Origin: Candidatus Zixiibacteriota bacterium
GTDB taxonomy: Bacteria > Zixibacteria > MSB-5A5 > GN15 > FEB-12
NCBI GenBank assembly: GCA_024277795.1
Contig: JAJRUL010000085.1
Coordinates: 1 to 22,568 of the forward strand
Reading direction: 5' to 3'
Length of the DNA: 22,568 nt
Both the position numbers and the translations under genes were made by a program. Below, in pieces: positions 2,744-22,568 of the stretch; the stretch's first letter is position 1; every line of letters starts with the position of its first letter. The notes under the pieces are model-generated. The model did no database searches and was not told the DNA's origin. It saw only the letters and a list, made by a program, of their open reading frames with translations.

Positions 2744-3715
2744 TTATTGCTCAAAACGGAATGGCACAGTCCACCCATTCCAGACAAAAGTCGTATCTGG
2801 AGGATTGCTACCAACGATTGGAATAGCCTGCACCTCTTGGAATGACAAGAGATCCCATATATGAGGACTATTGTGCCTTGTTGCAACCGTATCAACCCAA
2901 TGGGTTGCATCTAATCGGTTCATATCGTAGAGAACGAAACCAGAATCGGATTCTGCCGAAATCAACTGGTAATATGATGTCGGCTTCAATTTTGAACTGG
3001 TAATATACAACAAATCCCCTGCATTTATTAACCCTGTCATCGAAAGACGAATATATTTGTAATCAGTATAACCTGGGACCAATCTAACCTCACCATTTGA
3101 AAGCGTATCATACAATACATATCGCAACTGGGAATACTCCAACTGATCCCCACGAAACTCTACATTGCGATTCGAACGGATAACCATCTCGGCTGGACTT
3201 TCAGGTGCACCACCATTATACCCCCACAATAACCAACCAAGATTTGCTTGAGCATCGCTACCTAACTTTAGGAAGAAACCAACTCGAGTCAAAGCACGTT
3301 TATGCGATGAAAAAGTTGTATCACCATTCTCGATTCTAAGCACTCTGAGATGAAAGAAATCATCAACAATCACCTCAGCATCACGAGCCATCCCAATACT
3401 CCCACCAAAATCCTTGAGGACACGTACTGGAGTAGTATCCACAACTATCGAGCGATACACCGAATCAACAATGATCTTATAGATTGCCGAGTCTCCATCA
3501 ATAGTAAACGGATCTTCCAGAAAGATATTGTCAACACGAAAAAGGTCACGTCCTTCTTCAGTCTGACTTATATAGTCTCGTAGAACATCGGCATCGACCA
3601 CAAAAGTAACACCCCGCTCTTCACATCCACTGAAAGCAAACAGAGAAATAAGTAAAATCAGAGGCAGTATCGACAGGTAAATTGACTTCGCTCTTTCTTT
3701 CAAAACTTTATGCAC
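2744..3715 (-). CDS. Hypothetical lipoprotein, no recognisable domain.
   Basis: 323-aa ORF. N-terminus …[25 protein letters not shown] is a signal peptide plus lipobox. GTG start at 3715 with a purine-rich GGAAGAAGAAG upstream, overlapping the uvrB stop by 8 nt; an alternative TTG start at 3703 is possible. TAA stop. Confidence 0.6.
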
Positions 3716-5741: not shown

Positions 5742-6014
5742 ATCTATTCTCACATATATTTAGACGATTCAATATGCCAATATATGCAACTGTCATATTG
5801 TCGCAATCATATAAGACTCACAATCTTGCATGTTAACCTCAATGGGAACCTGCACTGACTTTAGTAGTATACACTTATGATGATTGCGATGCTTAAATAG
5901 AAGTTGATTATCATGGGGAAATTTGCCTTGACTTAGGCGTGAAATGCTGTAAGTTTGGTGGTTTTTAACTTGTGAACGGATAACGACTTCTATTGTTTTT
6001 TTTGGAGGATGTTC

Positions 6015-6329
6015 ATGTACGCTGTATTTGAAGTATCGGGCATGCAATTTACTGCCCGCGAAGGAGATGTAATTACAGTTCCCCACCAGCAGGCCGAACT
6101 GGGTGCAAAGCTCGATATTGACCAAGTCTTACTTATCAAGAAAGACGACCAGTCAATTGTCGGAACACCTATTGTTGCTGATGCGAAAGTTGAAGCTGAG
6201 ATAGTTGAACACGGTAAAGACGACAAGGTACTTATCTATAAATATAAGCGTCGCACAAAGTACCGTCGCACTCAAGGACACAGACAGGATTTCACTCAGA
6301 TCAAAGTAAACAAAATTGTAGCTCCATAA
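6015..6329 (+). CDS. rplU: 50S ribosomal protein L21.
   Basis: MYAVFEVSGMQFTAREGDVITVP…KVLIYKYKRRTKYRRTQGHRQDFTQIKVNKI is canonical L21. GGAGG at 6004-6008 with a 6-nt spacer to the ATG at 6015. The ATG at 6009 abuts the SD and is rejected. TAA stop. Confidence 0.9.
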   Translation: MYAVFEVSGMQFTAREGDVITVPHQQAELGAKLDIDQVLLIKKDDQSIVGTPIVADAKVEAEIVEHGKDDKVLIYKYKRRTKYRRTQGHRQDFTQIKVNKIVAP

Positions 6330-6351
6330 CTCAACACACAACCATGGACTC

Positions 6352-8868
6352 TTGAACCGATCAATTGACAATCGAGCATGGACTGCTCGTATACTGGCGA
6401 TTGCAAAACAATCGACTATTCCCCTTTTCCTGTGCCTGATAGTGTTGGCTATTGCCACTCCGATTAGTGCTCAGCAGGAGTTCCGTGTAGTTGAAGTAGT
6501 CGTCGATGGAAACAGAATAGCAACAGAGGCACTGATCCTTGGAGTTGCTTCCCTTGAAATTGGTCAACCCCTCACACCAACTACAATTTCTGAAACTATC
6601 CGTCGGCTCTATGGGCTGGGCATCTTTTCCGATGTAAGAATTGATGCCGAAGATGTTACTGGCGGATTAAAAGTCTACATCGTTGTCAAAGAATTGCCAA
6701 AACTCTCCGAGTTAAAGTTCATTGGCAATAAAAAGATCAAGGATAAAGAACTCAAGGAACAACTGGGGTTAGGAGTCGGTGGATACATATCCCCATATCT
6801 GATCGAGAAGAAAAAACAAGAACTTAAAAAACTCTATGCAGAAAAAGGGTTTTTTCAGGCTGAAATAACACCACAATTGACCTATTCAGATGACTCTACC
6901 GAAGCCAAGCTTTCTTTCACTTTTAATGAAAAATCAAAAGTCAAAGTGGAAAAGGTAGTCATCAACGGTGCAAAACGCGTCAAAACAAAAGACTTGATTA
7001 AAAAGATGAGGAACCGAAAACGCGGTTTTCTCAAAAGCTCAGACTTTGCCCAAGAAGAATTTAGCGATGACTTGCTGAAAGTCATCAACGAGTATCATGA
7101 ACGAGGGTACATTGACGCTTACATGATTTCTGATTCGATGTACATTGATACAAATAGCAATAAGATGACTATCTTTCTCAATGTCTACGAAGGGCCTCGC
7201 TACTATTTTGGAGATGCAACATTCTCAGGCAATGAAGAGCTTCCCACAGAAGTATTGAAAAAAGCCCTAAAATATAAGAAAGGGCATACCTTCAATTCAA
7301 AAAAATATGATGAATCAATCATGGAAATATCATCTGCTTACTATGAAATCGGTCATCTCCATGTACGAATAGCAGATCAGCGAACCACAAGAGCTGATTC
7401 TATAATCGATATCTCCTATACAATATCTGAGGGTCTCCCTTCTCACGTACAGATGATTAACATCATAGGCAATACCAAAACAAAAGAGCATGTTATACGT
7501 AGAGAAATCTCAACTTTGCCGGGACAAAAGTTTAGCAGGGCTTTGTTGATACGATCAGTCCGTGATGTCATGGCGTTGAATTACTTCGCCAACGTCGAAC
7601 CGATCCCCAGAGACCGTGTGGATGGCGATGTTGATATTGACTTTAAGATAACGGAAAAACAGACGGGTCAGATTTCTGCAGGGGCAGGCTACAATAGTCA
7701 GGATAAAATGGTTGGCACGCTCGGTATGGGAATCCCAAATTTTCGAGGCAATGGTCAAAACCTGAATTTCTCCTTAGATTTCGGCTCAAGACGAAATTCG
7801 TTCTCACTCTCTTTTACTGAACCTTGGCTAGCTGGCAGACCAACCCTTCTCGGAATCAATATGTTTGCTCTTAATCGACGGTGGTTTAATGATTATACTG
7901 AAGGTCGAACAGGCGGATCAATTCGTCTCGGACGACGACTCAAATGGCCTGACAACTATTTCAGAGTCTTTGCATCATATTCACTGGAGAGAAATCGCTT
8001 TTTTGATTTTGATGATTCCTACATAGAGAACAACTCATACAAATCTCAGTACTATTGGAATGATTACACAACAGCAAGCAGAACTGACTCATTAATCGCT
8101 CGCACTGTTTATTCCCCTTACCCGGGTTCTGTACTAAGCTACAATGAGGAAACGCTGACTGCTTCTCGTTTAACAATATCCATTGTCCGTGATTCACGAA
8201 ACCTGCCTCAATTTGCTACCAGTGGATCTAAAATCGCATATAATTTTCAGATGACAGGTTCATGGCTAGGTGGATTCTGGCAATACCAAAAACATGAACT
8301 CACTATAGCAAAGTTCTTCCCTCTCTTCTGGAAACTATCATTTGCAGCCAAAGTACAATACAATGTCATTACAAGACCAAAGGGAGACGATCGAGTTCTC
8401 ATCTCTGATCGATTCACCCCGGGTGGTACTGCATTTGATGGCATTGTGAGAGGATATAATGACGGAACTCTGACTCCCGATTCGTTAGTAACACAATCGG
8501 ACACAACCTTTTTCTACAACGACCCACACGCAGTTGTTGGAGTAGATATCCCTGATGACACATCATTCTCCAGCTACAATACACGAGTTCGAGGGATGTA
8601 TATGCTCGTCGGTAATTTTGAACTACAATTCCCTATTACTGAGGGAAGTATTTACGCACTCGCTTTCTTTGATGCGGGTAACTCATGGCTCTACCGTGGT
8701 GATATAAACCTCGCAAATGATTTATATCGAAGTGCTGGAGTCGGATTCAGAGTGGTGGTACCGGCAATCGGAACAATAGGGTTTGACTTTGCCTATCCGT
8801 TTGATGTACTTGAAGGACAGGATAAAGGATGGAAACCTCATTTTCAAATCGGAACGACATTTAGATAA
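6352..8868 (+). CDS. bamA: Outer membrane protein assembly factor BamA (Omp85 family; POTRA repeats plus C-terminal beta-barrel).
   Basis: 838-aa ORF with a signal peptide (…IPLFLCLIVLAIATPISA/QQ), repeated POTRA-like segments, and a C-terminal barrel ending …HFQIGTTFR with terminal aromatic residues. The start is ambiguous: TTG at 6352 with no SD, and no in-frame ATG/GTG before the signal peptide. TAA stop. Confidence 0.85.
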   Translation: MNRSIDNRAWTARILAIAKQSTIPLFLCLIVLAIATPISAQQEFRVVEVVVDGNRIATEALILGVASLEIGQPLTPTTISETIRRLYGLGIFSDVRIDAEDVTGGLKVYIVVKELPKLSELKFIGNKKIKDKELKEQLGLGVGGYISPYLIEKKKQELKKLYAEKGFFQAEITPQLTYSDDSTEAKLSFTFNEKSKVKVEKVVINGAKRVKTKDLIKKMRNRKRGFLKSSDFAQEEFSDDLLKVINEYHERGYIDAYMISDSMYIDTNSNKMTIFLNVYEGPRYYFGDATFSGNEELPTEVLKKALKYKKGHTFNSKKYDESIMEISSAYYEIGHLHVRIADQRTTRADSIIDISYTISEGLPSHVQMINIIGNTKTKEHVIRREISTLPGQKFSRALLIRSVRDVMALNYFANVEPIPRDRVDGDVDIDFKITEKQTGQISAGAGYNSQDKMVGTLGMGIPNFRGNGQNLNFSLDFGSRRNSFSLSFTEPWLAGRPTLLGINMFALNRRWFNDYTEGRTGGSIRLGRRLKWPDNYFRVFASYSLERNRFFDFDDSYIENNSYKSQYYWNDYTTASRTDSLIARTVYSPYPGSVLSYNEETLTASRLTISIVRDSRNLPQFATSGSKIAYNFQMTGSWLGGFWQYQKHELTIAKFFPLFWKLSFAAKVQYNVITRPKGDDRVLISDRFTPGGTAFDGIVRGYNDGTLTPDSLVTQSDTTFFYNDPHAVVGVDIPDDTSFSSYNTRVRGMYMLVGNFELQFPITEGSIYALAFFDAGNSWLYRGDINLANDLYRSAGVGFRVVVPAIGTIGFDFAYPFDVLEGQDKGWKPHFQIGTTFR

Positions 8869-8893: not shown

Positions 8894-9430
8894 ATGCGAA
8901 AAACCGGAATGACGGTAACAGCAATCGCTGTCACATTATTGGGAGTTTTTCTGCTTGCGGGACAAGCCTCAGCTCAAGGATTAAAAATCGGATTTGTAAA
9001 GGATGAACGACTATTTAGCGAATATCGTTAAGTCCAAAAAGCCCAAGAAGAATTTGAAGTCCTCTCACGTGCTTGGGATGAAGAAGCTCAAGAGAAATAC
9101 GCTGAAATCACTGAGATGATTCAGGATTATGAGAAACAAAAAGTTGTCCTCTCGGACGATGCACGTAAAGAACGTGAAGCGGCTATTCAAGTGAAACAGG
9201 ATGCTCTAGACAACTTCACTCGTTCAGTCTTTGGCCCGGGTGGACAAAAAGAACAAAAAAACTCTCAACTCATGCAACCGTTACTAGATAAGATTCATCG
9301 AGCAATCGAAGCTGTCGCTGTCGATGGAAATTTCGATGTCATCTTTACCCTGCAAGGTATTGGCTACATTAAAGAATCCTTTGATGTAACTGACAAAGTT
9401 CTGGAAAAACTGGCTGACATGGAAGATTGA
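8894..9430 (+). pseudogene. skp: Skp/OmpH periplasmic chaperone, 179-codon frame interrupted by a single in-frame TAA at 9029-9031 (codon 46). The downstream piece is ORF 9116..9430.
   Basis: ATG at 8894 with an AGGAAC RBS. Signal peptide MRKTGMTVTAIAVTLLGVFLLAGQASA/QG, then LKIGFVKDERLFSEYR-TAA-VQKAQEEFEVLSRAWDEEAQEKYAEITEMIQDYEKQ… continues in the same frame to the OmpH-like C-terminus …GNFDVIFTLQGIGYIKESFDVTDKVLEKL. Total length and position (bamA-skp-lpxD) are canonical. The gene may be functional if the TAA is an assembly error or is read through. Confidence 0.7.
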
Positions 9431-9431
9431 T

Positions 9432-10448
9432 TTGCCTTTGAAACTTAGCGAAATCGCCGACACGGTCGGTGGAACGATAGATGGTGATGGTGGTGTCACA
9501 ATATCAGGTGTTGCCCCTATTGAAACTGCCACACCGTCTGAGATCAGCTTTGTTGCTAATCCACGCTATAAACAACATATAGCGACAACAAAAGCGGGGG
9601 CACTTGTGCTCGATCACGAAACGGACTCAAAGGGAATACCTGCGATAAGACACCCTGAACCGTACCTTACTTTCGCTAAGATTATCGATCTGCTCTATCC
9701 TGAAGAACAATTAACAAAGCCTGGCATAGATCAGACTTCAATCGTTGCTGATAATGCTAAGATTGACGATCTGGTTGCTATCGGTCCACTCTGTCATATC
9801 CGAAATTCAGTAACTATCGGAGCAGGGACAGAACTGGTCTCATCAGTATACATCGGTAGTAACGTCACTATTGGTAAGAATTGTCGTCTGTACCCGGGTG
9901 TACGTATAATGGACGGTGTCTGTATTGGGAATAATGTCCGAATACATTCAGCAACAGTAATCGGCTCAGACTGATTCGGCTATGCCGAGTCAAAAACGGG
10001 TTTGAAGAAAATAAAGCAGATCGGATGGGTAGAAATCGATGATGATGTTGAAATTGGATCCAACTGTTCAGTAGACCGCGGAGCCTTAGGACCAACCAAA
10101 ATCGGCCGAGGAACCAAAATCGATAACCTAGTGCAGATTGCGCATAACGTCGAAATTGGTCAACATTCGATTATAGTATCTCAAGTTGGCATTTCAGGCT
10201 CAACAAAAATTGGTAATGGTGTGATTCTTGCAGGGCAAGTCGGAATTGTCGGCCATATTGAAATTGGTGACGGTGCAATTGTCGGTGCTCAATCAGGAGT
10301 GTCTAAATCGGTAAAGGCAGGAGAAAAAGTTTTCGGTTCCCCTGCCCGACCGATCATGCTCACTAAGCGAATAGAAGCGTGCCAAACAAAACTACCTGAT
10401 GTAATCAAACGTATACGCTCGATCGAAGAAAAGATCAAAGATAATTAG
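9432..10448 (+). pseudogene. lpxD: UDP-3-O-(3-hydroxyacyl)glucosamine N-acyltransferase LpxD. A single in-frame TGA at 9972-9974 splits it into ORFs 9432..9974 and 10002..10448.
   Basis: TTG start 1 nt after the skp stop. …[40 protein letters not shown]…[10 protein letters not shown]… is the universal LpxD IGSDGFGYA…KIPQIG…IAHNV region with TGA exactly at the Gly (GGA) position. Both pieces are in the same frame, left-handed beta-helix hexapeptide repeats run throughout, and the catalytic His lies in the downstream piece. TAG stop. Confidence 0.75.
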
Positions 10449-10457
10449 CAAATTGAG

Positions 10458-11039
10458 TTACGTAACTAACCGTTCTTCGATCATCACGATTTTTTCCCAA
10501 TTCTTCTCCATTTTCCCAACTTGATTGAGTACCTCTTTTCCATCCCCTGACTCAGCCGCTTGCCGTATTGCCTGCAAGATGTGCCATTGCTGACGATTCA
10601 CTACCTTCCACTGAGCTATATGTCGTCCAAGCTCACCTACAGTCTGATTGAGTTCTGTAACGATACTCCCCAAATGCCCACGTGTTTCTGAAGATGGTAC
10701 AGTTCCGGATAAATCTCCAGCCGCCATTTCACGCAATCGCATCTGTATCTTTTTTGCTGATCCTGCCCCTCGTAAGACAGGTAAGAGAGCAATAACCGCA
10801 ATCGCTGTAATAGCCGCTACTACTGCTGAAATCATATACGGCATCAGAGTCAATGCGGCAAGCTCAAACGCACTCCCGACCCGAGCGAGACGATCCTCTG
10901 TAAAGATACTGTTAAAGTAAATGATTGTAGATGCAGAGAGTATTATTGTCGCACCAGTCATAAAAAACAGACGTCGATAAATGAGCATTTTTGCCTCATC
11001 AATTTGGTTCACCTCAGATTTCCTACCACTTTTCAACAC
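10458..11039 (-). CDS. Membrane protein with two TM helices plus a HAMP domain and no output domain.
   Basis: About 190 aa. TM1 LIYRRLFFMTGATIILSASTIIYF and TM2 TLMPYMISAVVAAITAIAVIALLPVL, followed by a HAMP-like AKKIQMRLREMAAGDLSGTVP…LGSIVTELNQTVGEL and a short coiled-coil tail. AGGAGG at 11043-11048. Start is GTG 11039 or TTG 11036. TAA stop is only 9 bp from the convergent lpxD stop. Confidence 0.6.
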   Translation of the reverse strand: MLKSGRKSEVNQIDEAKMLIYRRLFFMTGATIILSASTIIYFNSIFTEDRLARVGSAFELAALTLMPYMISAVVAAITAIAVIALLPVLRGAGSAKKIQMRLREMAAGDLSGTVPSSETRGHLGSIVTELNQTVGELGRHIAQWKVVNRQQWHILQAIRQAAESGDGKEVLNQVGKMEKNWEKIVMIEERLVT

Positions 11040-11891: not shown

Positions 11892-12692
11892 TTGTCGAAA
11901 ATTGAGCAAAAAATAACAACAATTAAACGTTTCATTACAGGCCAACTTACAGCCTCAGGGATGAAAGGTTTTGTCTTAGGACTTTCTGGAGGAATTGACT
12001 CGGCAGTCTCTGCAGTCCTTGCTGTTGAAGCGATTGGAAATGACAAAGTTTTGGGAATTATGATGCCATATCGCACATCATCTGACAACTCCCTCAGCGA
12101 TGCCAAAGCTTTGGCAAAACATCTTAACATCTCAACCAGACAGATTGAAATATCCCCGATGATAGATGCCTATTTCCCTACTATTAATGATGACATAAAA
12201 TTAAGGGCAGGCAATAAAATGGCTCGTGAAAGAATGTCGATTCTATTTGATATTGCCGCCGAAACAAGCAGACTCGTACTTGGGACAGGAAATCGCACAG
12301 AAATCTGCCTTGGCTACACTACTTGGTATGGAGACTCCGCTTGCTCAATAAATCCTATTGGGGAATTGTATAAAACAGAAGTGAGAGAAATAGCACGGTA
12401 TTTTGAGCTACCAGACTCTATTATTTCCAAACCCCCATCTGCTGACCTCTGGGCTGGACAAACTGATGAGAAAGAGATTGGTGTCACCTATGAACTGATT
12501 GACCGTCTCTTAGAATGTTTGATTGATCAGGGTACAACCTCGATGTCACAACTTGAAGCTCAAGGGTTCAGTTCAACAGACATCAGCAAAGTCGTTTCAC
12601 TTCTTAACCGCAACTGGTTCAAAAGGCAACTACCCGCTATTGCCCCATTAGGAAAAACAGCAATCCCTCGCCATCTACAGTTGGTAGATTGA
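11892..12692 (+). CDS. nadE: NH3-dependent NAD+ synthetase.
   Basis: …MKGFVLGLSGGIDSAVSAV… is the PP-loop SGGxDS, and …GTGNRTEICLGYTTWYGDSA…PSADLWAGQTDEKEIGVTYELID… is NadE-typical. TTG start at 11892 is the first codon after an in-frame TAG, with a weak SD. TGA stop overlaps the rsmI start region. Confidence 0.85.
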   Translation: MSKIEQKITTIKRFITGQLTASGMKGFVLGLSGGIDSAVSAVLAVEAIGNDKVLGIMMPYRTSSDNSLSDAKALAKHLNISTRQIEISPMIDAYFPTINDDIKLRAGNKMARERMSILFDIAAETSRLVLGTGNRTEICLGYTTWYGDSACSINPIGELYKTEVREIARYFELPDSIISKPPSADLWAGQTDEKEIGVTYELIDRLLECLIDQGTTSMSQLEAQGFSSTDISKVVSLLNRNWFKRQLPAIAPLGKTAIPRHLQLVD

Positions 12693-12700
12693 GGTTATAC

Positions 12701-13411
12701 GTGTCAGACGGAAAAGCCACACTATATTTAGTGCCTACCCCTATTGGCAATATGGGAGACATTTCTGATCGTGTTCGTGCAACCCTATCAGAAGTTGAAG
12801 TCATTGCTTGTGAAGACACAAGACATAGCGGAAGATTGCTTCAGCAATTAGGAATAAAAAAAAAGCTCCTCAGTTACCATAACTTTAACGAAACACAGCG
12901 AGCATCACAGCTCATTGAAATACTCCGTCATGGCAGTTCAGTCGCTGTCATTACTGATGCAGGCTCTCCGGGTATCTCTGACCCTGCTTTTCGTGTCGTT
13001 CGTATCGCAATTGAACATGATATCGAAATCATTCCCATCCCTGGACCGAATGCGATTATTCCTGCTTTAACCGCATCCGGACTTCCAACGGACAGATTCT
13101 TTTTTGAAGGGTTCCTCTCTCCAAAATCTGGTGCACGAAAAAAACGGCTATCTACTCTGAAAGAGCTCAATCATACACTCATCTTCTATGAATCTCCACA
13201 CCGAATTGTCAAAACGATAGCTGATATGCTAATAGTTCTTGGGAACAGACAAGCCTGTATCGCAAGAGAGATAAGTAAAGTGCACGAAGAATTCCTTCGC
13301 GGAACCCTAAAAGAGCTCAATGATTGTCTCAGCAAGCGGAAACTAAAAGGGGAAATGGTCGTTCTGGTTGGAGGAAGTTCAATGATTGCAGAAGAGCAAC
13401 AGGAAACATAA
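12701..13411 (+). CDS. rsmI: 16S rRNA (cytidine1402-2'-O)-methyltransferase, tetrapyrrole-methylase fold.
   Basis: …TLYLVPTPIGNMGDISDRVRATLSEVEVIACEDTRHSGRLLQQLGI…LIFYESPHRI… is RsmI/YraL-like. GTG at 12701 with a GAGG SD 7 nt upstream is preferred; the ORF track gives TTG 12689. TAA stop abuts the next ATG. Confidence 0.85.
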   Translation: MSDGKATLYLVPTPIGNMGDISDRVRATLSEVEVIACEDTRHSGRLLQQLGIKKKLLSYHNFNETQRASQLIEILRHGSSVAVITDAGSPGISDPAFRVVRIAIEHDIEIIPIPGPNAIIPALTASGLPTDRFFFEGFLSPKSGARKKRLSTLKELNHTLIFYESPHRIVKTIADMLIVLGNRQACIAREISKVHEEFLRGTLKELNDCLSKRKLKGEMVVLVGGSSMIAEEQQET

Positions 13412-14329
13412 ATGTCAACCTCGGCTATCCGTTTCTACACATTTGATAAGCTGTTCATCGGTTATTGCCTATTGATGGTTATTACCTTACTTGCCTTTGG
13501 GCGACCTCTGTCAAACTATCTGCCAGCGTTACTCTTCTATTCCTCTATGGGAGTACTGGTAGTTCTAATAGCACGATATCTCAGCATTGAACAAAGTGGT
13601 TGGCGAAAACTGCTTCGCTTGTTATATCCCGTCATTCTCTTCACTTTCTTTTATCGCATGACTGGCGATTTGATGCACCTGATTTTTAGTGACTTCTTCG
13701 ACTCACAACTTGTTGCTTTTGAGTTAGCCCTGTTTGGTGTACATCCTACGCTCTATATTGACCAACATCTTCTCAATACACTAACAACTGAGATTATCTC
13801 CTTCTGCTATTTTTCATACTACCTAATGATTCCGGTATTCCTTGCAACGCTCTACTATCAACAAGATTTAGACAATCTAAAAAATTCTCTGTCTGCCATC
13901 TCTATTACCTTCTTTCTCTCCTATATGCTCTTTTTTCTTTATCCTGTAGAAGGACCGCGCTGGCATTTTGCTTCAGAATATATACATCAGGTATCAGGGC
14001 CGGTGTTTAGACGAATGGTTGAATTTGTTATTGCCAATGGGGCTGTTCGCGGTGGCTGTATGCCATCCTCTCATTTCGGCGTTGCTTTGGTTCTGGTGAT
14101 GTATACTTTTCGTCGGAAACAACCGAGCAGGTGGATTTGGCTGTTGTTGACAGTCGGCCTTTCGGTAGGTACTGTATGGGGTCGTTTCCATTATGTTTCT
14201 GATGTTGTAGTCGGGGGTATAATAGGTTTGATATCGACATTAGTTGCCTGGAGATTTGTGGAACCGCATAACTCAGGGCAGAACCAACAGCAAAAAATTA
14301 CTGGAGTTATAAAAAATCATGTGGCCTGA
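13412..14329 (+). CDS. PAP2-superfamily integral membrane phosphotransferase of the AUR1 / sphingomyelin-synthase-like branch (PAP2_3/PAP2_C-like).
   Basis: 305 aa with about 6 predicted TM helices. GGCMPSSHF resembles the SMS D3 C-G-D-x3-S-G-H-T / PSGH motif. WGRFHYVSDVVVGG resembles SMS D4 H-Y-T-x-D-V / SRx5Hx3D. AGGAAA SD with a 5-nt spacer. TGA stop overlaps lgt by 11 nt. Confidence 0.6.
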   Translation: MSTSAIRFYTFDKLFIGYCLLMVITLLAFGRPLSNYLPALLFYSSMGVLVVLIARYLSIEQSGWRKLLRLLYPVILFTFFYRMTGDLMHLIFSDFFDSQLVAFELALFGVHPTLYIDQHLLNTLTTEIISFCYFSYYLMIPVFLATLYYQQDLDNLKNSLSAISITFFLSYMLFFLYPVEGPRWHFASEYIHQVSGPVFRRMVEFVIANGAVRGGCMPSSHFGVALVLVMYTFRRKQPSRWIWLLLTVGLSVGTVWGRFHYVSDVVVGGIIGLISTLVAWRFVEPHNSGQNQQQKITGVIKNHVA

Positions 14330-15131
14330 AATATTTAGAATTGGACCGATACCTATTCGTTCTTATGGGCTTGCGCTCGCCGTCGCTTTCTTCCTCGGAA
14401 TTACATATATTTACAAACTGACACAGAAATATAACAAGCCGTTCGAGCCGTTTCTCACAATCTCCTACATCATGATCTTTGGAGGAATTATTGGGGCTCG
14501 ACTGGCATATGTTCTGTTTCATCTCTCAGAATTTTCAGGTAACTGGGGAGCAACATTCAATCCGTTTGCTTCAGCATCTTTCGGAATTGCAGGCTTGAAT
14601 GTGTATGGAGGAGTCTTTCTTGCGATTATCGGAACATTTGTTTATACACGTTGGACCAAACAATCTGTCTTAGAGTATTTCGATTTCTTCTCTCCAACTT
14701 TTGGTTTGGGTTTAGGTATAGCTCGAATCGGTTGCTTCCTCAATGGATGTTGTTTTGGTACACCGACTGATCTCCCGTGGGGCATCACGTTCCCACAAGG
14801 ATCTATCCCCTATTCAGTTTTTGGTTCAGCCCATATCCACCCATCTCAAATATACAGTTCTCTCTATGGCTTTGGTTTATTCTTCTTGTTGCATTGGATG
14901 ATGCCCCGAAGGAAATTTGTCGGTCAATTGGTTGCAGTAATGTTCATGATAGAAGCGTTTTTCCGCTATACTATTGAATCAGTACGTTTCTATGAAAACG
15001 CAATGCATATAGAAATTGCAGGCTTGCACCCAACGTACAATCACCTCATGTCGATAGGTATATTTAGCCTCGGTTTAGCTATCTATCTTATTCAACAAAA
15101 ACGAGCACGTTTGCCCGTAACAGAGAACTAA
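14319..15131 (+). CDS. lgt: Prolipoprotein diacylglyceryl transferase.
   Basis: MWPEIFRIGPIPIRSYGLALAVAFFLG…YGGVFLAIIG…GLGIARIGCFLNGCCFGTPTDLPWGITFP contains the Lgt signature GRxGNFxNGE-like region and about 7 TM helices. TAA stop. Confidence 0.88.
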   Translation: MWPEIFRIGPIPIRSYGLALAVAFFLGITYIYKLTQKYNKPFEPFLTISYIMIFGGIIGARLAYVLFHLSEFSGNWGATFNPFASASFGIAGLNVYGGVFLAIIGTFVYTRWTKQSVLEYFDFFSPTFGLGLGIARIGCFLNGCCFGTPTDLPWGITFPQGSIPYSVFGSAHIHPSQIYSSLYGFGLFFLLHWMMPRRKFVGQLVAVMFMIEAFFRYTIESVRFYENAMHIEIAGLHPTYNHLMSIGIFSLGLAIYLIQQKRARLPVTEN

Positions 15132-19819: not shown

Positions 19820-20359
19820 ATGAGAATTTCATCATTAGAAGAGTATGGATTGCGGTGCCTCCTCGCTATCGGTGAGCAAAAACCACCAGGACAGATGTCT
19901 ATTCCGGAAATAGCTGAACAGGAAGGATTATCAATTCCATATACTTCAAAATTGATGTCAATCCTGCGACGTGCAGGGCTTGTCAAAGCGGTTCGAGGTA
20001 GATCAGGAGGTTTCACACTAACTCGTGCACCTAAAGATATTACGCTGTTAGATATTCTTACATCATTGGGTGGCCCTCTGCTCGACCCGGACCATTGTAC
20101 GAAATATTCGGGACAGTTGGATGAGTGTGTCCATATGTCAGATTGCAATGTTCACTCTGTACTTGGATCTTTAGCCAGTTTTGTCGGAGGAATGCTCGCA
20201 CGGACCTCCCTTCAAGATATGTTAGACCAAACAGCATCCGCTTCATTGATTAGCTCTGAAGAGCTTATCAACAGCGGTAACATTATCAATATGCACCATG
20301 CAAACAGTAAACGAATGGATGCCTTCGATTGTAACCCAAACGACGGCAAAGAACTATAA
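19820..20359 (+). CDS. Rrf2-family transcriptional regulator (IscR/SufR-like, Fe-S cluster ligands present), likely repressor of the downstream suf genes.
   Basis: The N-terminal wHTH region (MRISSLEEYGLRCLLAIGEQ…MSIPEIAEQEGLSIPYTSKLMSILRRAGLVKAVRGRSGGFTLTRAP) is Rrf2-like. Cys/His cluster DPDHCTKYSGQLDECVHMSDCNVH matches the IscR 3Cys+His spacing. There is an unusual ~45-aa C-terminal extension. Position is immediately upstream of sufCB. Confidence 0.8.
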   Translation: MRISSLEEYGLRCLLAIGEQKPPGQMSIPEIAEQEGLSIPYTSKLMSILRRAGLVKAVRGRSGGFTLTRAPKDITLLDILTSLGGPLLDPDHCTKYSGQLDECVHMSDCNVHSVLGSLASFVGGMLARTSLQDMLDQTASASLISSEELINSGNIINMHHANSKRMDAFDCNPNDGKEL

Positions 20360-20376
20360 AAGGATGTGAGAGTTAT

Positions 20377-21150
20377 ATGTCCGATACACAACCATTATTT
20401 GATTTTAAGAACATACACGTGGAAGTTGAAGGAAAGGAAGTTGTTTCCGGAATTTCTTTGACAATTAACAAGGGTGAGACTCACGCTATCATGGGACCAA
20501 ATGGTTCAGGCAAATCCTCTTTGTCTAATGCGTTGATGGGGCACCCATCATACACAATTACCAAAGGTGAAGCCTATCTTGATGGTCAGGATATTCTTCA
20601 AATGCAAGCCGATGAACGTTCGCGTGCGGGACTCTTTCTTGCCTTCCAGTACCCGCTGGCAATCCCCGGTGTCACAGTCGCGAATTTCATGCGTGCCGCC
20701 GTCCAGGCACATCGTGGAAAAGACGCTGACATGACTGACTTCAGGAAAATATTTCTGGGGCAGATGAAAGATCTGTCTATCGACAAAGCTTTTGCAACGC
20801 GCTACCTAAATGAAGGCTTCTCAGGTGGAGAAAAAAAGAGAATAGAAATACTTCAACTCTCTATGCTCAATCCGAAGGTTGCGTTATTAGATGAGACAGA
20901 TTCCGGTCTCGATATTGATGCGTTGAAAGTCGTGTCTGAAGGAATAAACAGATATCACAATGAGAATAATGGCGTTCTCCTTATCACCCACTACCAGAGA
21001 CTGCTCAATTATGTCAAACCGGATATCGTCCATGTGATGTATCGTGGCAAAATAGCAGAAACAGGTGGACCTGATTTGGCTCTAAAATTAGAAGATCAGG
21101 GGTATGAATGGATTGAAAAAACAGCCGGGCAGACAGCAGAGGTGCGATAA
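20377..21150 (+). CDS. sufC: Fe-S cluster assembly ATPase SufC.
   Basis: Walker [14 protein letters not shown] signature [12 protein letters not shown], Walker [15 protein letters not shown], and H-loop [10 protein letters not shown]. 257 aa. TAA overlaps the sufB ATG (TAATG). Confidence 0.92.
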
Positions 21151-22568
21151 TGTCCGAAGCAATCAGACAACAGAACAAAACATTAGAGGCGTTGAATGCC
21201 GACTATGCCTCAAAATACGGTTTCCATGATCCCGTTGAATATTTCCACAAAGGTGCCAAGGGAGTAAATCACGAAGTTGTCGAGATGATCTCAAAGATGA
21301 AAAAGGAACCTCGCTGGATGGCCGATCTTCGTCACAAAGCGTACGATATCTTTCTTTCAAAACCGATGCCGACGTTTGGAAATACTGAGCTACTCTCTGA
21401 AATTGACTTTGAAAATGTTTATTACTTCATGAAGCCAATTGAAAATAAACAAGATGACTGGGATGATGTCCCCGAATATATCAAGAAAACGTTTGATCGC
21501 CTCGGAATACCTGAAGCTGAAAAGAAATTCCTTGGCGGGGTCTCTGCACAATACGAATCAGAAGTAGTCTATCATTCAGTCAAAGATGAACTGACTGAAC
21601 AGGGCGTTGTCTTTCTTGACATGGATTCTGCAGTACAAGAGAGACCTGATATTGTCCAGAAATATTTCGGTACGGTAATCCCCGCAACTGACAACAAGTT
21701 CGCCGCACTTAACGGTGCAGTATGGTCTGGTGGATCATTTATTTATATCCCACCCGGACTTGATGTCAAAATCCCTCTACAGGCATATTTCCGTATCAAT
21801 GCTGAAAATATGGGACAATTTGAACGGACATTGATTATCGCTGATAAAGGTGCTCGTGTCCACTACATCGAAGGTTGTACTGCTCCTGTCTATTCCACAA
21901 ACTCATTGCATACTGCAGTTGTTGAAGTGATAGCTCTTGATGAAGCATATATACGCTACACGACAATACAAAACTGGTCGCGTAATATCTATAACCTCGT
22001 GACCAAACGAGCTTCGGCATACAAAAATGCAACTGTTGAATGGGTTGACGGCAACCTCGGATCTCGTTTAACAATGAAATACCCATGTATCCAACTTCTT
22101 GGAGAAGGTGCCAAAGGAGAAATTCTCTCCGTTGCCTTTGCGGGTATCGAACAACATCAGGATGCAGGAGCGAAGGTAATTCACGCCGCTCCGAATACAT
22201 CATCACGGATCACATCGAAATCTATCAGCAAAGACAATGGTAGAGCTTCATACCGTGGACTCGTAAAAATCCACAAGAATGCAACAAACTGTAAAGTCTC
22301 AGTAGAATGCGATGCCCTGCTAATCGGTGAAGAAGCTCGTTCTGACACCTACCCGACAATGGAAATAGATAACGATCAAGTTCGAGTCGAACATGAAGCT
22401 CGCGTTTCCAAAGTGGCCGAAGAACAACTCTTCTATCTTACCAGTCGTGGTCTGACTGAAGATGACGCTCGTCTGCTGATTGTAAATGGTTTCATGGAAC
22501 CGTTCACCAAGCAACTCCCGATGGAGTATGCTGTTGAACTTAATCGATTGATTGAACTTGAAATGGAA
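21150..22568 (+). CDS. sufB: Fe-S cluster assembly scaffold SufB, 473 codons open to the window end (3' end not reached).
   Basis: ATG at 21150. The frame is open through 22568. Translation [28 protein letters not shown]…[16 protein letters not shown]…[16 protein letters not shown]…[17 protein letters not shown]…[17 protein letters not shown]…[27 protein letters not shown]… matches SufB. It is not in the ORF track because no stop is reached. Confidence 0.9.

Follow-up and report, generated by a model that had tools for sequence, protein, structure and literature searches.

Two lone in-frame stop codons in the adjacent genes skp and lpxD of a metagenome-derived Zixibacteria contig

The window, by which we mean the whole stretch of 22,568 nucleotides analysed here, contains a gene for the periplasmic chaperone Skp whose reading frame is broken by a TAA at codon 46. 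The question raised by this locus is whether the stop reflects the way skp is read or encoded in the organism or whether it arose on the way from the cell to the database record.

The skp frame and its internal TAA

The features of the gene are as follows.

8894..9430, + strand: skp, encoding an OmpH-family periplasmic chaperone; 178 codons plus a TGA terminator, interrupted at codon 46
9029..9031, + strand: in-frame TAA at skp codon 46; GAA (Glu) in the sister contig, Ala, Glu, Gly or Asp among other relatives
8894..9031, + strand: 5' fragment of skp, 45 codons, covering the putative signal peptide and 18 residues of the mature N-terminus; a gene call of its own in the public record (P0102, NCBI)
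9116..9430, + strand: 3' open reading frame of skp, 104 codons, from the first in-frame ATG past the stop; a gene call of its own (P0005); upstream sequence gaaatacgctgaaatcactgag

The original prediction had described a single in-frame TAA at 9029-9031, codon 46, in an otherwise complete skp, and both the translation and a domain match across the stop bear this out. The frame reads MRKTGMTVTAIAVTLLGVFLLAGQASAQGLKIGFVKDERLFSEYR-stop-VQKAQEEFEV...ADMED-stop, with the TAA as its sole internal stop (...LFSEYR-stop-VQKAQEEFE...). With the stop masked, Skp matched the Pfam OmpH profile (PF03938) with 96.7 bits against a cut-off of 32.4, and the match took in residues 31-173 and the entire profile (positions 1-141 of 141), crossing codon 46. 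By inspection, the N-terminus resembles a signal peptide (MRKTGMTVTAIAVTLLGVFLLAGQASA/QG, with a hydrophobic core and an ASA/QG motif). It is conserved in the alignment, as is the LKIGFV strand that comes next. At the other end of the gene, the TGA terminator coincides with the C-terminal ends of the aligned homologues. Over 100% of its length, the product shares 91% identity with an intact Skp of 178 aa (P0001).

With the Skp/OmpH family (PF03938) and the bamA-skp-lpxD cluster the locus shares the full-length domain match, a signal-peptide-like N-terminus and the gene order, the last of which is common to more than 79 Zixibacteria loci; it differs from the family in that the frame is broken at codon 46. 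The OmpH profile and the bamA-skp-lpxD context are present while an uninterrupted frame of ~178 aa is not. Judged by profile match and genomic context, the gene is a bona fide skp. As written, with the stop at codon 46, it cannot yield a functional periplasmic trimeric chaperone.

A second stop in lpxD and comparison with relatives

The neighbours of skp in the cluster are listed below together with a second stop.

6352..8868, + strand: bamA, intact, with five POTRA domains and an Omp85 barrel; the upstream member of bamA-skp-lpxD
9432..10448, + strand: lpxD, encoding UDP-3-O-acylglucosamine N-acyltransferase, with Pfam LpxD and Hexapep domains; interrupted at codon 181
9972..9974, + strand: in-frame TGA at lpxD codon 181, in an invariant Gly column (GSD-stop-FGY); GGA in the sister contig

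An isolated in-frame stop in lpxD had likewise been reported in the original prediction and was recovered here as the TGA at 9972-9974, in the surroundings ...TVIGSD-stop-FGYAE.... Residues 5-335 of LpxD are colinear with solved LpxD structures (e.g. 6uec), and the stop aligns opposite the Gly of their GGEGFGF motif. It falls in the middle of the enzyme and leaves fragments of 180 aa and 148 aa. The order bamA-skp-lpxD was also found in 79-81 related loci. As relatives meet stops within the first 10-17 aligned residues, bamA probably begins downstream of the TTG at 6352, the earliest start possible. Upstream, uvrB and bamA are divergently transcribed from a spacer of ~600 nt (window 5754-6400) without an Rfam match.

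Both stops are already in the deposited NCBI record, of which the window is one entire contig. Named homologues assign the contig to Zixibacteria. It turned up only in the protein collection, exact look-ups of window proteins in the contig index having given no match. Exact look-up returned four separate NCBI gene products from this one contig, namely Skp of 45 aa and 104 aa and LpxD of 180 aa and 148 aa, and a protein search showed P0005 (104 aa) to be 100% identical to the open reading frame ATG 9116..9430. Since the four fragments are recorded as separate gene products, both stops predate gene calling. The skp stop is a feature of the public record itself rather than one added in the window.

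The closest relative of the interrupted Skp, P0001, is encoded together with most of lpxD on a 1,490-nt ENA metagenome scaffold (L001), referred to here as the sister contig. Window and sister contig aligned at 75% nucleotide identity without internal gaps, and 280 of the 369 mismatches fell on third codon positions. The sister contig has GAA opposite the skp TAA and GGA opposite the lpxD TGA, and both stops are therefore read as G>T changes in the first base of their codon, 943 nt from each other and on one strand. This agrees with the earlier statement that the TAA is one substitution away from GAA, the codon present in the 91%-identical sister gene. For lpxD, the change GGA>TGA can be taken as certain, because the Gly is invariant and GGA is the only Gly codon one change away from TGA. 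For skp, we infer GAA>TAA from the sister contig.

The relatives compared comprised 80 loci from species-representative genomes and the sister contig. Uninterrupted skp occurred in 81/81 and uninterrupted lpxD in 79/79 of them, so that the proposed check for a TAA conserved among close relatives had a negative outcome (a stop at the position in 0/81). Skp position 46 was Ala in 48 of the 81 relatives, Glu in 16, Gly and Asp in 6 each, Pro in 3, and Val and Thr in one each. LpxD position 181, in turn, was Gly in 79/79, always encoded by GGN. Both stops are private to the window contig.

Each stop is one first-base change from the expected sense codon (Glu GAA, Gly GGA), and the downstream sequence stays in frame. 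Such a pattern would suit recoding by a suppressor tRNA, by programmed readthrough or by a variant code, or the production of split proteins by reinitiation at ATG 9116 in skp and TTG 10002 in lpxD. The lpxD TGA at a Gly position in addition matches UGA=Gly of code 25, a known bacterial reassignment (Gracilibacteria/SR1); we know of no bacterial reassignment of TAA. However, the genes of the window end on TAA (12/20), TGA (6/20) and TAG (2/20), with skp itself ending on TGA, and as all three stop codons terminate window genes, nothing is reassigned. Two different stop codons would require two mechanisms, and a programmed signal would be conserved, whereas none of the relatives, the sister contig included, carries either stop. 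For the lpxD TGA, both UGA=Gly (code 25) and selenocysteine were considered and rejected, as six genes of the window end on TGA and the Rfam scan gave no SECIS-type family.

Known cases of stop-codon reassignment (code 25 with UGA=Gly in Gracilibacteria/SR1; code 4 with UGA=Trp) resemble the locus in having stops at sense positions, here with a TGA at an invariant Gly. In contrast to these systems, all three stops terminate genes in the window, and each internal stop is a single instance that is not conserved: rather than recurrent and shared in-frame occurrences of a codon that no longer terminates, the ~22 genes contain one TAA and one TGA. Programmed readthrough and selenocysteine insertion were likewise not indicated, the stops being unconserved and the window yielding no Rfam families above threshold, e.g. 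SECIS. No tRNA genes were found in the window. The skp stop stands in the context TAA-G, which is among the strongest termination signals in E. coli. We found no literature report of stop recoding in Zixibacteria.

As to reinitiation, the 104-aa product from ATG 9116 would begin after both the signal peptide and the LKIGFV strand of the N-terminus, and therefore no exported periplasmic Skp would result. No Shine-Dalgarno-like sequence was seen upstream of ATG 9116 or TTG 10002, whereas the true skp start has AAGGAACAGGAAA. The earlier suggestion of readthrough or reinitiation at ATG 9116 is without support, given that TAA is the commonest terminator of the window, that its context here is a strong termination signal, that the stop is absent from 81 relatives, and that the restart product would be no periplasmic Skp and has no Shine-Dalgarno-like sequence upstream. 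We regard recoding or split products as very improbable.

Condition of the window and rarity of lone stops

The window holds ~22 genes, all of which are intact except skp and lpxD, and no frameshifts were found. Besides the bamA cluster it encodes, among others, an AMP-binding enzyme (cut by the contig start), Band7, UvrB, SSB, NadE, RsmI, a PAP2 protein, Lgt, a BNR protein, ZIP, a rubrerythrin, MntP, an Rrf2 regulator, SufC and SufB (cut by the contig end). Scanning all six frames for pairs of ORFs in one frame and split by one stop revealed no further broken genes in the window. The decay test implied by the original prediction, many other conserved genes with internal stops, was negative within the window contig, lpxD being the only one besides skp.

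Three places that might be taken for broken genes were rejected. The rsmI/pap2 pair (12689-13411 and 13412-14329) is not one broken gene but two unrelated ones; the TAA of rsmI is directly followed, in the same frame, by the ATG of the gene for the PAP2-family membrane protein (window 13409-13414). An ORF at 20148-19732 (- strand), in frame upstream of mntP (19716-19042), is spurious and antisense to the Rrf2 gene. The tail at 21150-22568 is not a decayed gene but the intact SufB running off the contig end, and looked ORF-free only since edge-crossing ORFs go unlisted. It belongs to a suf Fe-S cluster assembly locus (window 19820-22568) consisting of the Rrf2-family regulator (19820-20359), SufC (20377-21150) and SufB (21150-22568), in which the sufB start overlaps the sufC stop as TAATG. 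Two conserved, syntenic genes of the window encode proteins that fall into no Pfam or NCBIfam family: one of 323 aa beside the Band7/SPFH gene (2744-3715, - strand), with 42 orthologs in related loci, and one of 193 aa between lpxD and ssb (10458-11039, - strand), with 56.

We aligned the orthologs of 12 genes syntenic with related loci, using 36-82 sequences each. At ~930 near-invariant columns (with no more than one sequence departing from the shared residue), the only private deviations of the window were the lpxD stop and a Leu>Ile change in lgt; bamA had none at its 161 such columns. The lgt change is a conservative one at codon 248 (15060-15062), which is ATA (Ile) in the window and Leu in every other Lgt ortholog; a Leu codon could have given rise to it by either C>A or T>A. 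At 1,794 columns with at least 80% conservation the window had 18 private residues (10 per 1000), ranking 22nd of 57 against a median of 7.8. Of these 18 residues, 3 were possible single G>T/C>A changes, the lpxD stop among them, compared to a background of 11% in 56 other sequences; at these conserved columns there was no signature of widespread G>T damage or of a mutator.

Nonsynonymous divergence (pN) on both sides of each stop was computed against the sister contig, with lgt as an intact control; synonymous sites were saturated in these comparisons (pS 0.65-0.92).

skp codons 1-45: pN 0.055
skp codons 47-178: pN 0.042
lpxD codons 1-180: pN 0.148
lpxD codons 182 to end: pN 0.039
lgt, intact control: pN 0.081

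These values argue for strong purifying selection, with no relaxation on either side of either stop. Both stops are evolutionarily instantaneous events without an evolutionary footprint. The description of the skp lesion as a point event rather than an indel or decay holds: there is one lesion, the downstream sequence is in frame, and purifying selection is seen on both sides.

With two of ~22 window genes interrupted, skp and lpxD could in principle be two among many degrading genes in a reduced genome or one under relaxed selection. The remaining genes, however, are intact up to those at the edges and free of frameshifts, the rate of private substitutions is ordinary, and pN flanking the stops (0.04-0.15) is like that of intact lgt (0.08). 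Instead of the features of a decaying pseudogene, we found a single lesion per gene, conserved residues kept, and no relaxed selection. General decay is refuted within the window contig, and overall we consider it the most remote of the explanations discussed here.

In related MAG loci, only one true isolated internal stop was found among 733 ortholog instances of window genes (~0.1%), most apparent stops being alignment overruns at gene ends. This one is an in-frame TAA in nadE of another Zixibacteria MAG (L075, 14100-14102 of JAJRQO010000032.1), after which homology resumes. The corresponding column is Ser in 43/52 aligned sequences, 8 of them with TCA, and TCA>TAA would fall in the G:C>T:A class, like the window stops. 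Lone stops thus do occur elsewhere in MAG records of the phylum. Four frameshift-like splits (two HSPs in different frames) were also seen in other MAGs, in lpxD (L058 10533-11527; L051 10476-11469), band7 (L030 2889-3691) and the gene for the AMP-binding enzyme (L077 1295-2270); these are probably indel errors of the respective assemblies.

Two stops in adjacent genes are well above the baseline of ~1/733, which suggests one local cause. In the window coding sequence, 4.4% of all possible substitutions create a stop, compared to 10% of G>T/C>A changes, the class likeliest to do so in these genes. By our own calculation, exactly two nonsense changes without any other detectable excess at conserved columns have a probability of at most ~3% for any assumed number of events, a figure that applies equally to error and to neutral real mutation, does not discriminate between them, and is inflated by ascertainment, stops being the only point changes noticeable in raw sequence. 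The chance that two random sites lie within 943 nt was calculated to be ~8%. When the two stop sites were compared by eye, the only common motif was a weak GRAKTC resemblance.

Origin of the two stops

The first two causes named in the original prediction, error and recent nonsense mutation, are both possible. Under the second, the contig would represent a real and very recent haplotype, with both skp and lpxD knocked out by G:C>T:A transversions in the population or its dominant strain. The stops sit in an otherwise very clean contig, unlike a generally poor assembly; they neighbour each other within one operon and share a strand, as expected of a single linked haplotype, and the absence of decay fits a very recent event. 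Loss of Skp would be tolerated through SurA/DegP-type redundancy, known in model organisms, and skp is dispensable in E. coli. Loss of LpxD would have to be tolerated via a paralogue elsewhere in the genome or dispensability of LPS, or else the cells would be non-viable and the DNA a relic. A few species, namely Acinetobacter baumannii, Neisseria meningitidis and Moraxella catarrhalis, have viable LPS-deficient lpxA/C/D mutants.

Against such a haplotype stands the strong selection on lpxD across the phylum, the gene being intact in 79/79 relatives with its Gly invariant. Two nonsense hits without missense changes would also be as improbable as under random error unless the loss was positively selected, for which there is no evidence. 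In addition, recurrence of the allele was not found. The protein clusters of the window are all singletons except that of Lgt, which is paired with a protein from the ENA sample that also yielded the sister contig, and the sole near relative is intact. A codon-degenerate 62-nt pattern around the stop gave 0 matches to same-species DNA in JGI metagenome contigs, and in a scan of species-representative genomes the relatives recovered reached at most 59% aa identity, the window's own genome not being among them. The locus resembles recent nonsense pseudogenes, including those of LPS-deficient lpxA/lpxC/lpxD mutants of Acinetobacter baumannii, in the single premature stop within an otherwise intact gene. 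It is unlike them in that two adjacent genes are hit together without any other change, that lpxD is intact in 79 relatives, and that the allele is known from one assembly. We therefore consider a real double knock-out to be a plausible minority reading, on the unlikely side.

lpxD is essential in almost all LPS-producing bacteria, and 8-oxoguanine is a classic cause of G>T changes. Damage artefacts are normally found at low allele fraction and should enter the consensus only where coverage is very low or one template was sequenced. We favour, with somewhat better than even confidence, an artefact at the level of the record: an error in the consensus, damage of the 8-oxoG type to a template that was single or poorly covered, or the assembler's capture of a rare variant. 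An artefact is preferred over real mutation because lpxD is normally essential and error is blind to selection. A nonsense change at an invariant Gly of a gene intact in 79/79 relatives is thus unlikely to have stood at consensus frequency in a population from which a 22-kb contig was assembled.

In this sequence of events, a private G>T change (GAA>TAA) would have entered the deposited consensus of the metagenome-derived Zixibacteria contig, along with a change of the same class (GGA>TGA) 943 nt downstream in lpxD. We infer that they arose outside the cell, during preparation of the sample, its sequencing or the assembly, in which case the living population would make normal full-length Skp and LpxD.

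Several observations do not sit easily with an artefact. Random errors should be mostly missense or silent, the contig otherwise looks highly accurate, with intact genes and no frameshifts, and private changes at the 1,794 conserved columns show no excess of G>T/C>A (3/18 vs 11%). Both stops belong to the G>T (C>A) class expected of oxidative damage and, like 8-oxoG artefacts of library preparation, have no evolutionary footprint; unlike in such cases, there is no G>T/C>A excess elsewhere in the contig. With consensus and local assembly errors of MAGs (Chen et al. 2020, Genome Res., PMC7111523) the stops share the character of isolated private single-base changes that truncate gene calls. Uncorrected local assembly errors in MAGs are described there as propagating incorrect protein-coding sequences into databases.

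Taken together, we conclude that the skp TAA does not reflect the normal reading or encoding of skp in the organism but is an ordinary private single-base nonsense change in a MAG record. As it stands, the importance of the finding is mainly one of data quality. Four truncated products (Skp of 45 and 104 aa, LpxD of 180 and 148 aa) are now in protein databases as singleton clusters, and where annotation, pangenomes or "gene loss" in Zixibacteria are studied, such records could be misleading.

It is highly unlikely that a living Zixibacteria lineage which still needs Skp and LpxD carries both stops as real, fixed alleles, and nothing in our analysis favours a real and fixed state. If both were real and fixed nonetheless, the locus would be a modestly interesting example, from an uncultured phylum, of outer-membrane biogenesis genes being inactivated together or of stop codons being suppressed. 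One option would imply efficient suppression of UAA and UGA, with the first-position U read as G and Glu and Gly restored; the other would be a free-living diderm that recently gave up its periplasmic OMP chaperone along with lipid A synthesis.
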